A stretch of DNA of 64,000 nucleotides, from the NCBI RefSeq assembly GCF_017348835.2, contig NZ_CP071375.1. One strand, given 5' to 3'. Below, piece by piece: positions 1 to 3,832 of this stretch (its first letter is position 1; each line of letters starts with the position of its first letter). The stretch is from Escherichia coli (GTDB lineage: Bacteria > Pseudomonadota > Gammaproteobacteria > Enterobacterales > Enterobacteriaceae). Under the pieces are notes generated by a model. It saw only the letters and a list, made by a program, of their open reading frames with translations, was not told the origin of the DNA and did no database searches. The translations under genes and the position numbers were made by a program.

Positions 1-186
1 CCGTTCTGGCAAGGGCTGTCGCACCTGAACCCAATCGTTTATATGATCAGTGGTTTCCGCTACGGCTTCCTCGGTATCAATGATGTTCCGCTGGTCACTA
101 CCTTTGGCGTACTGGTGGTCTTTATTGTGGCGTTTTATTTGATCTGTTGGTCGCTGATCCAACGTGGACGTGGTTTGCGTAGCTAA
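1..186 (+). CDS. yadH: ABC-2 type transporter permease, 3' end (partial)
   Basis: Frame 1 is open from the window edge to TAA at 184-186; the translation (...GFRYGFLGINDVPLVTTFGVLVVFIVAFYLICWSLIQRGRGLRS) is a hydrophobic membrane-protein C-terminus; position upstream of yadI matches the K-12 order. Confidence 0.7.
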   Translation, partial: PFWQGLSHLNPIVYMISGFRYGFLGINDVPLVTTFGVLVVFIVAFYLICWSLIQRGRGLRS

Positions 187-193
187 GGCTATT

Positions 194-226
194 TCCTCTC
201 CTCTGGATTTGGGGGAGAGGAGTTTT
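194..226 (+). terminator. Hairpin (TCCTCTCC / GGAGAGGA) followed by GTTTT, downstream of yadH
   Basis: Inverted repeat at 194-201 and 214-221 followed by a T-run, read directly from the sequence. Confidence 0.35.
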
Positions 227-290
227 GACGGCTATCACCCTTTATCAACAATGGTCAGGGTAGACTGATTTTCGGCTAAGGAGGAAGGCG

Positions 291-731
291 ATGTTAGGTT
301 GGGTAATTACCTGTCACGATGACCGGGCGCAAGAGATACTGGATGCGCTGGAGAAAAAACATGGGGCACTTCTTCAGTGCCGGGCCGTGAATTTCTGGCG
401 TGGGTTAAGCTCTAATATGCTCAGCCGCATGATGTGCGATGCTCTGCATGAAGCGGACTCTGGTGAGGGTGTCATCTTCTTAACCGATATAGCCGGAGCG
501 CCACCGTACCGCGTGGCTTCATTATTAAGCCACAAACACTCCCGTTGCGAAGTGATTTCTGGTGTCACGTTACCGTTAATTGAACAGATGATGGCTTGCC
601 GTGAAACCATGACCAGTTCAGAGTTTCGCGAGCGTATTGTCGAACTGGGTGGGCCGGAGGTGAGTAGTCTTTGGCACCAACAACAAAAAAATCCACCTTT
701 CGTCCTCAAACATAATTTGTATGAGTATTAA
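291..731 (+). CDS. yadI: Orphan PTS enzyme IIA-like protein (mannose/sorbose family)
   Basis: 146-aa ORF; translation and position match yadI of E. coli; no IIB/IIC/IID genes are adjacent. Confidence 0.85.
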   Translation: MLGWVITCHDDRAQEILDALEKKHGALLQCRAVNFWRGLSSNMLSRMMCDALHEADSGEGVIFLTDIAGAPPYRVASLLSHKHSRCEVISGVTLPLIEQMMACRETMTSSEFRERIVELGGPEVSSLWHQQQKNPPFVLKHNLYEY

Positions 732-794
732 CCCACGATTCTTATAGCGCTTTTGCTACAATAAAAGCGTTGTTTCACCCTCGGTTATTTTTTC

Positions 795-2024
795 ATGTAC
801 AAACAAGCTGTTATTCTCCTGCTGATGCTGTTTACCGCAAGTGTCAGTGCCGCGTTACCTGCCCGTTATATGCAAACCATCGAAAATGCTGCGGTCTGGG
901 CGCAAATTGGCGACAAGATGGTGACCGTGGGGAATATTCGGGCCGGACAAATCATTGCCGTGGAGCCCACTGCCGCAAGTTATTACGCATTTAATTTTGG
1001 CTTTGGTAAAGGGTTTATCGATAAAGGGCATCTCGAGCCGGTTCAGGGGCGACAAAAAGTTGAAGACGGTTTGGGTGACCTCAACAAGCCGCTGAGTAAT
1101 CAGAACTTAGTTACCTGGAAAGATACGCCGGTCTATAACGCGCCGAGTGTGGGCAGTGCGCCATTTGGGGTACTGGCGGACAATTTGCGCTACCCGATTT
1201 TGCATAAACTGAAAGACAGGTTAAATCAAACCTGGTATCAGGTCCGTATTGGCGATCGACTGGCCTATATCAGCGCGCTGGATGCCCAACCCGATAATGG
1301 CCTTCCGGTGCTAACCTATCATCATATTCTGCGCGACGAAGAAAACACCCGTTTTCGCCACACTTCGACGACCACCTCGGTACGCGCTTTCAATAACCAG
1401 ATGGCCTGGCTGCGCGACAGGGGATACGCGACACTGAGCATGGTGCAGCTGGAAGGCTACGTGAAGAATAAGATCAATCTCCCTGCGCGAGCGGTGGTGA
1501 TTACCTTTGATGATGGCCTCAAGTCGGTGAGCCGCTATGCGTATCCTGTGTTGAAACAATATGGCATGAAGGCGACGGCGTTTATTGTTACCTCACGCAT
1601 CAAACGTCACCCGCAGAAGTGGAACCCAAAATCGCTGCAATTTATGAGCGTTTCTGAGCTTAACGAAATTCGCGATGTTTTTGATTTTCAGTCACATACC
1701 CATTTTTTGCATCGGGTGGATGGCTATCGCCGCCCCATATTACTGAGTCGTAGTGAGCACAATATTCTGTTTGATTTTGCACGTTCACGCCGCGCTCTGG
1801 CGCAATTTAATCCGCATGTCTGGTATCTTTCGTATCCGTTTGGCGGATTTAATGACAAAGCCGTGAAGGCAGCAAACGATGCCGGATTTCACTTGGCGGT
1901 GACAACCATGAAAGGCAAAGTAAAACCGGGGGATAATCCGTTGTTACTAAAACGACTTTATATCTTAAGAACGGATTCGCTCGAGACGATGTCGCGGCTG
2001 GTGAGTAACCAGCCGCAGGGATAA
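795..2024 (+). CDS. yadE: Secreted polysaccharide deacetylase-family protein
   Basis: 409-aa ORF with an N-terminal signal peptide ([19 protein letters not shown]); the C-terminal half resembles a NodB-type deacetylase; position between yadI and panD. Confidence 0.85.
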
Positions 2025-2027
2025 CAA

Positions 2028-2408
2028 TCAAGCAACCTGTACCGGAATCGCTTTCGCGGTACGTTTCATTTCATTGTCGCCTTCAAAATAGGCGACGTTG
2101 GGTCGCCAGGTGCGAGCTTCTTCATCTGGCATGGTAACGAAGCTAGCGATGATGACAATATCGCCGACACTGGCGCAGTGGGCCGCCGCACCGTTAACAG
2201 AAATAATTCTCGAACCGCGTTCTGCCGCGATGGCATAAGTGGAGAAACGCTTGCCGTTGGTGACATTCCAGATATCAATGGCTTCGTTTTCGAGAATACC
2301 GGCTGCGTCAAGAAAATCCTGGTCAATGGCGCAAGAACCTTCATAGTGCAGGTCCGCATGAGTCACTTTCACGCGGTGGAGTTTGCCCTGCAGCATCGTG
2401 CGAATCAT
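2028..2408 (-). CDS. panD: Aspartate 1-decarboxylase proenzyme
   Basis: 126-aa [36 protein letters not shown]..., with the characteristic G-S self-cleavage site context (YEGSCAID). Confidence 0.95.
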
Positions 2409-2681
2409 AACTTCTACCTTTCTACCCTGTCGTTAACGAAGCAGGCGGTGCCTGCTTTGAGGAAATTCTCACGCAGTATTGCCCGATTTTTGTTTAGTGT
2501 CTACTCATCTGACGGCATTTGCATCAGCAGTTTGCGTACCGCGCCGAAGTGTGCCATGTATCGCCTGTAACGAATTGATATTTCTCTGAACGCTGCTCGG
2601 TAAACAATAAAGAGGTGGCTGACGACGGCGCGCCTTGGCTGGATACTGCCTTCACGCAAGACAACACGGAAGACAGGGAAG

Positions 2682-3554
2682 ATGGATGCACCGAGTACTA
2701 CACCGCATGACGCGGTATTTAAACAATTTTTAATGCATGCGGAGACGGCTCGCGACTTTCTGGAGATACATTTGCCAGTGGAATTACGCGAACTTTGTGA
2801 CCTCAACACGCTTCATTTAGAGTCGGGGAGTTTCATTGAAGAGAGCCTGAAAGGACACAGCACGGACGTGCTCTATTCCGTGCAAATGCAGGGCAATCCC
2901 GGTTATCTGCATGTTGTGATTGAACACCAAAGCAAGCCGGATAAGAAAATGGCCTTTCGCATGATGCGTTATTCTATAGCCGCCATGCATCGGCATCTGG
3001 AGGCGGATCACGACAAACTACCGCTGGTAGTGCCGATTCTCTTTTATCAGGGCGAGGCCACACCTTATCCGCTCTCAATGTGCTGGTTTGATATGTTTTA
3101 CTCTCCGGAGCTGGCGCGACGCGTCTATAACAGTCCTTTCCCGCTGGTGGATATCACCATCACACCGGATGACGAAATCATGCAACATCGGCGGATTGCG
3201 ATTCTCGAACTACTGCAAAAACATATTCGCCAGCGCGACTTAATGTTATTGCTGGAGCAACTGGTCACGCTGATTGACGAAGGGTACACTAGCGGAAGTC
3301 AGTTAGTTGCCATGCAAAACTATATGCTGCAACGCGGTCATACTGAACAAGCGGATTTGTTTTATGGTGTGCTGAGAGACAGGGAAACGGGAGGGGAGTC
3401 TATGATGACGCTGGCGCAGTGGTTTGAAGAGAGGGGAAGACAGGAGGAAAGGCAAGAATTCGTCCTGCGTCTTCTGAATAAAGGAATGTCTCGGGAAGAC
3501 GTTGCAGAGATGGCAAATTTACCCCTTGCCGAGATTGATAAGCTGATTAACTAA
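2682..3554 (+). CDS. rpnC: Rpn-family (YhgA-like, transposase_31 / PD-(D/E)XK) recombination-promoting nuclease
   Basis: 290-aa ORF beginning MDAPSTTPHDAVFKQFLMHAETARDFLEIHLP, typical of the YhgA/Rpn family N-terminus; sits between panD and panC as yadD/rpnC does in E. coli. Confidence 0.85.
   Translation: MDAPSTTPHDAVFKQFLMHAETARDFLEIHLPVELRELCDLNTLHLESGSFIEESLKGHSTDVLYSVQMQGNPGYLHVVIEHQSKPDKKMAFRMMRYSIAAMHRHLEADHDKLPLVVPILFYQGEATPYPLSMCWFDMFYSPELARRVYNSPFPLVDITITPDDEIMQHRRIAILELLQKHIRQRDLMLLLEQLVTLIDEGYTSGSQLVAMQNYMLQRGHTEQADLFYGVLRDRETGGESMMTLAQWFEERGRQEERQEFVLRLLNKGMSREDVAEMANLPLAEIDKLIN
3402..3554 (+). CDS. Candidate internally initiated small protein (RpnS-like C-terminal tail of RpnC), in frame with rpnC
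   Basis: In-frame ATGATG at 3402-3407 preceded by a strong purine-rich SD-like motif GGGAGGGGAG (3389-3398); would encode about 50 aa (MMTLAQWFEERGRQ...EIDKLIN). Translation is not demonstrated. Confidence 0.35.
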   Translation: MMTLAQWFEERGRQEERQEFVLRLLNKGMSREDVAEMANLPLAEIDKLIN

Positions 3555-3823
3555 GTTGTCTGCATCATCAGTTATAGCCAGATAATTGTTATTGTTAACT
3601 GACCAGATAATTAAGGGAACCTATGGAAATAAAGACACGGAGAGAAACCAGGCAGACGTTGGCGCAGTGGTTTGAAGAGAAGGGATTTCAGAAGGGATAT
3701 CAAGAGGAACTCCAGAAGGTAAGACAGGAATTCGCCCAGCGTTTTCTAAGTAAAGGGATGTCTCGGGAAGACGTTGCAGAGGTGACAACTTTACCTCTTA
3801 CAGAGATTGATAAGCTAATTAAC
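3408..3823 (+). repeat. Diverged tandem direct repeat (about 145 bp and 168 bp copies) covering the rpnC tail-coding segment
   Basis: Copy 1 at about 3408-3551 and copy 2 at about 3656-3823 share long identical stretches (for example atgtctcgggaagacgttgcagag, ggcgcagtggtttgaagaga); copy 2 carries an extra insertion of about 24-33 bp. Confidence 0.7.
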
Positions 3824-3832
3824 TCTAACTAA
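3623..3832 (+). CDS. Stand-alone small ORF homologous to the RpnC C-terminal tail (duplicated RpnS-like module)
   Basis: 69-aa ORF (…LAQWFEEKG…GMSREDVAEVTTLPLTEIDKLINSN) with an AAGGGA SD 6-8 nt upstream; clear protein and nucleotide similarity to the rpnC 3' end. Confidence 0.5.
   Translation: MEIKTRRETRQTLAQWFEEKGFQKGYQEELQKVRQEFAQRFLSKGMSREDVAEVTTLPLTEIDKLINSN

Follow-up and report, generated by a model that had tools for sequence, protein, structure and literature searches.

In a 64,000-nucleotide (nt) stretch of Escherichia coli contig NZ_CP071375.1 (the window), yadI (291..731, + strand; ATG start, 146 amino acids (aa); identified from the open reading frame (ORF) list, Pfam and RefSeq) encodes a protein with the fold of mannose-family enzyme IIA (EIIA-Man) of the phosphotransferase system (PTS). 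We give an even chance to the reading that YadI is a binding-type adaptor or regulator, induced through the cyclic AMP (cAMP) receptor protein CRP and built on a remodelled EIIA-Man fold, for which phosphorylation of His9 is at most accessory. Alignment with characterised relatives indicates that YadI has kept the catalytic dyad, whereas its residues for docking the phosphodonor and stabilising the transfer are gone. Annotation already lists yadI as an orphan putative EIIA.

Fold, ancestry and phosphotransfer site of YadI

A search with the Pfam profile PF03610 (EIIA-man) matched YadI with E=6.2e-31 and 107.4 bits (gathering cut-off 21.4); the match spans positions 1-115 of the 116 in the profile, a signal far above chance. 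An AlphaFold2 model of YadI, built on a 48-sequence alignment, reached a mean predicted local distance difference test score (pLDDT) of 93.7. Its top Foldseek match in the PDB was the IIA domain of ManX (1PDO; TM score 0.84, root-mean-square deviation 1.8 Å, 121 columns, 28% identity), with further EIIA-Man crystal structures ranking below it. A HMMER sequence search of the PDB agreed, giving an essentially ungapped alignment of YadI with 1PDO in which His9 corresponds to His10 and Asp66 to Asp67; the comparison with ManX that the preliminary description had proposed for the phospho-histidine site thus located it. The ManX IIA domain (PDB 1PDO, 1VRC, 1VSQ) has its fold in common with YadI, but YadI has no fused IIB domain.

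Among the NCBIfam models the highest score for YadI was obtained with AgaF (NF040761), the EIIA of the N-acetylgalactosamine (GalNAc)/galactosamine PTS, at 106 bits and under the cut-off of 130, and the EIIA-man subfamily domain TIGR00824 scored 52.4 bits, under its cut-off of 98.35. With NF040761, the Edwardsiella YadI-like protein scored 111.6 and a His-less YadI orthologue (P0280) 84.9; the scores of true AgaF proteins were 197 (E. tarda) and 184 (P0141). YadI is an EIIA-Man-fold protein of AgaF ancestry that lies under both curated family thresholds, and its first characterisation as a 146-aa mannose-family EIIA-like protein holds, with AgaF as the closest family. AgaF is like YadI in size, with model positions 1-134 aligned end to end, and both carry a ...SLW... 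strand close to the C-terminus; the 197-bit AgaF of Edwardsiella sits in the same yadH/yadE island as the yadI-like gene. Unlike AgaF, YadI is encoded outside any aga/gam cluster, and a yadI-like gene adjoins such a cluster in Edwardsiella only. YadI also differs in reading CHDD for GHG and GAPPY for GG(S/T)PF, in the loss of a conserved Asn, and in having an invariant α2 helix and a C-terminal tail of its own. Foldseek further detected EIIA-Man-like domains of LevR-type sigma-54 activators and DhaM (3GDW and 3GX1, E~1e-5; 3CR3, E=0.02), which, unlike YadI, are parts of larger proteins, with 11-14% identity. These domains depend on a phosphorylated His for their function, and they show that the EIIA-Man fold has been reused for regulation.

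Searches of the whole 64-kb window by tblastn with IIB, IIC and IID proteins revealed no mannose-family IIB, IIC or IID genes, so the orphan status of yadI is real. The preliminary description had made the same statement for the adjacent genes and had concluded that YadI is unlikely to be a transport component, which stands.

Of the residues with strict conservation in the EIIA-Man proteins of solved structure, His10 is the phospho-acceptor and Asp67 its activator, Gly11 and Gly26 are structural and Gly71 lines the His pocket (PMC7587183). The same work identified the hydroxyl and backbone amide of Ser/Thr72 as holding the phosphoryl group in the transition state, with <6% activity for ManX S72C. 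It assigned the HPr contacts to Asn75 and to residues given in S. pneumoniae numbering as Gly94 and Asn96, which were placed here at Gly92 and Asn94 via the E. coli ManX sequence, and the hydrophobic HPr contact to Met23, Leu24, Leu25 and Pro96. We compared these columns in YadI, 113 orthologue clusters, 5 Edwardsiella sequences and 98 canonical relatives (25-39% identity), listed here as ManX residue, YadI residue, orthologues and canonical relatives:

ManX His10; YadI His9 (codon 315..317, CAC); orthologues His 95%, Tyr 4%; canonical His 96%
ManX Gly11; YadI Asp10; orthologues Asp 94%; canonical Gly 84%
ManX Met23; YadI Lys22; orthologues Lys 60%; canonical Leu 30%, Met 26%
ManX Leu24; YadI Lys23; orthologues Lys/Arg 78%; canonical Ile 69%
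ManX Leu25; YadI His24; orthologues Phe/Tyr 76%; canonical Val, Ala, Ile
ManX Gly26; YadI Gly25; orthologues Gly 94%; canonical Gly 95%
ManX Asp67; YadI Asp66 (codon 486..488, GAT); orthologues Asp 100%; canonical Asp 98%
ManX Gly71; YadI Ala70; orthologues Ala 83%; canonical Gly 90%
ManX Ser72; YadI Pro71; orthologues Ala 86%; canonical Ser/Thr 93%
ManX Gly92; YadI Gly91; orthologues Gly 99%; canonical Gly 98%
ManX Asn94; YadI Thr93; orthologues variable; canonical Asn 93%

Asp66 is invariant in the 48-sequence alignment as well, and His9 of E. coli YadI is followed by two acidic residues.

Loss of His9 and distribution of constraint

Position 9 is occupied by Tyr in 5 of the 113 orthologue clusters, and this residue is supported by cluster members in many independent assemblies. 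Members with Tyr9 include Klebsiella sp. RIT-PI-d (WP_049841969.1) and its relatives and the lineage P0075/P0273, and Tyr9 is also present in contigs whose DNA is 86-89% identical to the window. Two strains of [Enterobacter] lignolyticus (Pluralibacter lignolyticus) carry Phe9, their relatives having Tyr9. Codon 9 reads TAC, TAT and TTT in the loci L016, L015 and L014, respectively, and CAC or CAT in other orthologues. On an Edwardsiella-rooted neighbour-joining tree of this short protein, Fitch parsimony gave at least five changes at position 9, namely four independent His→Tyr changes and one Tyr→Phe change. A search of the literature for a published report of His-less EIIA-Man orthologues found none in what is searchable.

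All His-less lineages examined keep yadI in the yadG-yadH-yadI-yadE locus, with a length of 145-146 codons and with Asp66, and L014, L015 and L016 retain the promoter motifs and ribosome-binding site described below. Pairwise dN/dS (non-synonymous to synonymous divergence) of yadI was 0.035-0.15, pairs with one or both members His-less included, with dS saturated in many pairs. Since selection persists in the His-less lineages, the phospho-histidine is not what selection preserves in them. The preliminary description had named the absence of the phospho-acceptor His as evidence against its proposal; in the window His9 is present, but among the orthologues Tyr or Phe has replaced it repeatedly.

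To see where constraint lies in YadI, conservation was expressed as the share held by the commonest residue of a column, averaged over each element; only the ranking inside a set carries meaning (columns: element, YadI orthologues, canonical EIIA-Man):

α1; 0.68; 0.44
α2; 0.89; 0.34
loop 66-70; 0.72; 0.75
α3; 0.89; 0.43
α4; 0.66; 0.51
residues 124-134; 0.95; 0.19
tail 135-146; 0.83; 0.02

The lowest conservation in YadI orthologues fell on α1, loop 66-70 and α4, which are elements of the classical active face, and the highest on residues 124-134, α2 and α3. In the canonical proteins this order is reversed, with loop 66-70 first and α2 among the lowest. The constrained elements include:

411..455, + strand: helix α2, codons 41-55 (S-N-M-L-S-R-M-M-C-D-A-L-H-E-A), near-invariant in the YadI clade
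660..728, + strand: C-terminal segment VSSLWHQQQKNPPFVLKHNLYEY, codons 124-146, conserved in the clade, its tail predicted to be flexible

Residues N42-H53 (N-M-L-S-R-M-M-C-D-A-L-H) are identical in E. coli and Edwardsiella, and their canonical counterparts include variable charged residues. The last two blocks of the YadI model have pLDDT values of 76 and then 60; low pLDDT together with high conservation in this tail is as expected of a linear binding motif. The YadI clade is unusually rich in Cys (4.3 per protein; canonical relatives, 1.7) and in His (7.0; canonical relatives, 2.5), and Cys30, Cys49, His53, His81, His83, Cys86 and His129 are invariant in Enterobacteriaceae and Edwardsiella. 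These invariant residues may form a metal or redox site. An antisense ORF of 111 aa (TTG start, 374-709, - strand) lies wholly inside the constrained yadI; it is unsupported and probably spurious.

Promoter of yadI and history of the yadH/yadE junction

The following elements were located around the yadI coding sequence:

194..226, + strand: terminator-like hairpin after yadH, with an 11-bp G+C-rich stem (194-221) and TTTT at 223-226
222..241, + strand: CRP-type site GTTTTGACGGCTATCACCCT, a single exact match in the window
261..266, + strand: probable -10 hexamer TAGACT of yadI, by inferred assignment, with T..A..T invariant in six genera
278..284, + strand: ribosome-binding site AAGGAGG, seven bases before the start codon, with AAGGAG invariant in six genera
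751..762, + strand: TTTTGCTACAAT in the yadI-yadE spacer, with TTTG.TACA.T invariant in seven genera

RNA folding of positions 184-232 gave -20.3 kcal/mol (z -2.84), and hairpins of other sequence occupy the same spot in Salmonella, Klebsiella, Pluralibacter and Klebsiella sp. RIT-PI-d; the hairpin at 194..226 was missing from the output of a consensus terminator scan. The yadI 20-mer has been described as a CRP activator site on the basis of footprints, position weight matrix score and CRP ChIP-exo in a Reg-Seq preprint (10.1101/2025.05.13.653802). Its core TTGA-N6-TCA is invariant in six genera, three His-less ones among them. With TAGACT as the -10 element the CRP dyad (231.5) would lie near -41.5, a class II position; the preprint, counting from the start site that it predicts, has the dyad at -34.5. 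Given the hairpin after yadH and the conserved CRP-type site, -10 element and ribosome-binding site, yadI looks monocistronic and under catabolite control.

Judged from its conservation, TTTTGCTACAAT is probably an extended -10 element, belonging to a promoter that yadE has to itself. A hairpin in the same spacer (12 bp, -15.7 kcal/mol, z -3.9) was considered as an attenuator or terminator and rejected: TTTG.TACA.T is conserved while the stems vary across the seven genera and a T-run is absent, so the spacer is read as the yadE -10 region. The yadI-less Yersinia and Serratia carry TCGTG(A/C)TATGCTGG before yadE. An Rfam scan of positions 1-3000 revealed no RNA families.

Searches with HMMER among 1.84 billion representative proteins retrieved only two full-length clusters of YadI type, from Enterobacteriaceae and from Edwardsiella (45% identity), and the next relatives (at most 35% identity) are true AgaF proteins in agaR-agaS-IIB-IIC-IID-IIA clusters. 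In Yersinia and Serratia yadI is absent, the locus reading yadG-yadH, a spacer of 177-201 nt and yadE-panD; the Hafnia locus reads cueO-yadE-panD. No yadI relics were found by tblastn at the Yersinia, Serratia, Hafnia and Xenorhabdus loci (every match E>0.5). In Edwardsiella (5 genomes) the yadH/yadE junction is filled by the yadI-like gene, agaR-agaS-agaV-agaW-agaE-agaF-kbaY and then yadE, with agaF, agaV, agaW and agaS scoring over their NCBIfam cut-offs. This island is decaying: E. hoshinae has a frameshifted agaF and a truncated kbaY; agaS is truncated, kbaY fragmented and agaF highly divergent (48% identity) in E. ictaluri; and E. anguillarum and E. piscicida have, both after IID, a 5' relic of agaF (~57 codons, E~1e-6) and a 3' relic of kbaY. 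The yadI-like gene is intact in all five genomes. The decay of the island was noted in the loci L009 and L012 and at:

L010, 15106-15210
L011, 15099-15203

On the simplest reading, yadI arose as an AgaF paralogue tied to an island of GalNAc-type PTS genes between yadH and yadE, of which it is the sole remnant in Enterobacteriaceae. Lateral transfer of the locus between Edwardsiella and Enterobacteriaceae was considered and rejected; the flanks carry no such signal, Edwardsiella YadG and YadH being 80-88% similar to those of Yersinia, Serratia, Klebsiella and Salmonella alike. Two other changes were seen in passing. In E. piscicida yadE is frameshifted, and in Shimwellia pseudoproteus (L013, 4181-11763) an inversion puts gcd just 5' of yadI and has moved hpt, can and yadGH to the other strand, with yadI-yadE-panD still adjacent.

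The neighbours of yadI in the window are:

1..186, + strand: 3' end of yadH, ABC-2 type permease (TAA stop 184-186; RefSeq name; weak Pfam ABC2_membrane match)
795..2024, + strand: yadE, polysaccharide deacetylase family (Polysacc_deac_1, E=1.5e-21), its N-terminus resembling a Sec signal peptide

RefSeq labels the genes along the region yadH, yadI ('PTS sugar transporter subunit IIA'), yadE and panD, and those 5' of the window gcd, hpt, can and yadG; together with the domain matches, this annotation bears out the earlier placement of yadI between yadGH and yadE. The YadH end in the window shows 74% identity to Edwardsiella YadH. In all Enterobacteriaceae loci examined yadE adjoins yadI; it is a conserved neighbour and not a demonstrated partner. 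Over positions 1-2100 the identity to E. coli strain PE164 is 100%; among E. coli records, 86 reach 99% identity or more in this region and 5331 fall at 95-99%. With only 86 records in the upper class, the strain carries a minority allele of the yadH-yadE region, and its YadI shares 96% identity with the common E. coli YadI protein cluster. Further 3', a 69-aa ORF at 3623-3832 (+ strand), 3' of rpnC (2682-3554, + strand), is 63% identical to the last 56 RpnC residues (E=1e-21). This ORF duplicates the C-terminal tail of RpnC in detached form, and RefSeq lists it as a partial pseudogene without N-terminus.

Competing explanations and biological meaning

We infer that YadI acts as a binding protein. 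It is a diverged AgaF paralogue without an adjacent permease. The EIIA-Man fold has been kept, as has the His9-Asp66 pair in E. coli, but the residues for docking HPr/IIB and for stabilising the transfer have gone. A new, strongly constrained surface would be formed by α2, α3, the HKH..C loop and the C-terminal SLWHQQQKNPPFVL segment. The gene appears to be transcribed alone from a conserved promoter of the cAMP-CRP-activated type, and a promoter of this type implies that YadI is made when preferred sugars are absent. YadI would then bind another protein through the new surface, rather than serve as a phosphate-relay link to a sugar permease, and phosphorylation of His9, if any, would be an optional modulation. 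Adjacency alone makes YadG, the ATPase of the exporter encoded next to yadI, a candidate partner. We consider it very unlikely that YadI is instead a pseudo-EIIA that has abandoned phosphotransfer and bears a clade-specific Cys/His-rich site opposite His9, which would make it a cAMP-CRP-induced, metal- or redox-sensing adaptor in control of a conserved envelope function; the YadGH exporter and the basis of the reported colistin phenotype (see below) are candidate targets under this proposal.

Several points weigh against YadI as a binding-type regulator. His9 and Asp66 are kept in the E. coli window and in ~95% of the orthologue clusters, so something usually keeps the His and phosphorylation has its place among the possible functions. 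The conservation contrast sets orthologues against paralogues, which restricts its meaning to the rank order within each set, and the surface exposure of the conserved residues was deduced from helix periodicity and topology. Between E. anguillarum and E. piscicida, IIB/IIC/IID have a pN/pS (non-synonymous to synonymous polymorphism) of 0.08 despite the agaF relic; still constrained without an intact agaF, these genes must be served by some IIA. The Edwardsiella YadI-like protein is less degenerate, with Gly-His-Ser-Gly at the His site and Leu23-Leu24 in α1, and may be the IIA for those permease genes. The same observations, together with AgaF as the closest family and the Aga-type PTS adjoining the Edwardsiella gene, favour a YadI that acts in trans as a spare AgaF and passes phosphate to a IIB encoded elsewhere (AgaV/AgaB or another mannose-family permease). 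For E. coli we regard this as distinctly unlikely, for its YadI has Lys22-Lys23 and Cys-His-Asp-Asp in place of the Edwardsiella residues, His-less orthologues exist and IIB/IIC/IID are absent from the window. In addition, according to a summary in PMC4809568, AgaF Gly91Ser makes O157:H7 Aga-negative though yadI is a core gene, and K-12, which lacks agaF, is unable to use GalNAc (PMC9628945). From the phenotypes of these two strains it follows that chromosomal yadI does not visibly replace AgaF in E. coli.

The preliminary description had favoured a phosphorylation-dependent regulator. In this explanation HPr~P phosphorylates His9 and the phospho-state governs binding to a target, as in EIIA-Glc, EIIA-Ntr and orphan EIIA-Man-like proteins of alpha-proteobacteria. 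An EIIA-Man-like regulator from Brucella has related proteins in other alpha-proteobacteria. This Brucella melitensis protein, phosphorylated and proposed to bind SucA, offers a precedent (PMC2937029): like YadI it is a stand-alone mannose-family EIIA without a permease, but it is phosphorylated by NPr in a working relay and encoded beside hprK and ptsO, whereas YadI has neither that context nor an intact site. The orphan state of YadI and the retention of His9-Asp66 in E. coli and most orthologues also speak for phospho-regulation, as does one screen in which ΔyadI and ΔptsI both raised the half-maximal inhibitory concentration (IC50) of colistin (PMC12624714). In that study, however, over-expression of yadI had no effect on colistin and the authors dropped the gene, and low cAMP in ΔptsI would presumably also shut off the CRP-dependent yadI promoter. 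YadI no longer has the phosphoryl-positioning Ser/Thr72, Gly11, Gly71 or Asn94, nor the hydrophobic patch for docking HPr; His9 is followed by acidic residues, and the changes of position 9 to Tyr and Phe took place with purifying selection and promoter maintained. The proposal is therefore doubtful, and we hold it to be rather unlikely. That yadI is a functionless, slowly decaying relic of a deleted PTS cluster is most improbable. Several catalytic signature residues are gone, some lineages have lost His9 and the neighbouring PTS genes of Edwardsiella are visibly decaying, as such a relic would have it; yet yadI is intact at 143-147 codons across many genera, 5424 of the 5426 complete E. coli genomes contain its region, and the low dN/dS, the conserved promoter and ribosome-binding site and the blocks of invariant clade-specific residues all argue for function.

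A search for functional studies of YadI in the searchable literature found none, the other mentions being synonymous variants or author names. Nor did we find there any account of the residue-level decay of the YadI phosphotransfer site, of His9 being lost repeatedly while purifying selection continues, of constraint having moved to a different face of the protein, or of the Yersinia/Edwardsiella/Enterobacteriaceae series at one junction.

In E. coli and its relatives yadI belongs to the core 'y-ome', and everywhere it carries the label 'PTS sugar transporter subunit IIA', which is probably misleading. Because His-less orthologues occur naturally and are under purifying selection, an H9Y allele is predicted to be functional; these orthologues also direct the search for partners to the C-terminal tail and the α2/α3 face, away from the classical HPr/IIB face. 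The series from Yersinia (no gene) through Edwardsiella (gene and decaying GalNAc PTS) to Enterobacteriaceae (gene alone) represents the stepwise orphaning and repurposing of a transport subunit. If a partner is found, YadI would constitute a catabolite-controlled regulatory link in enterobacteria that bypasses EIIA-Glc and EIIA-Ntr.

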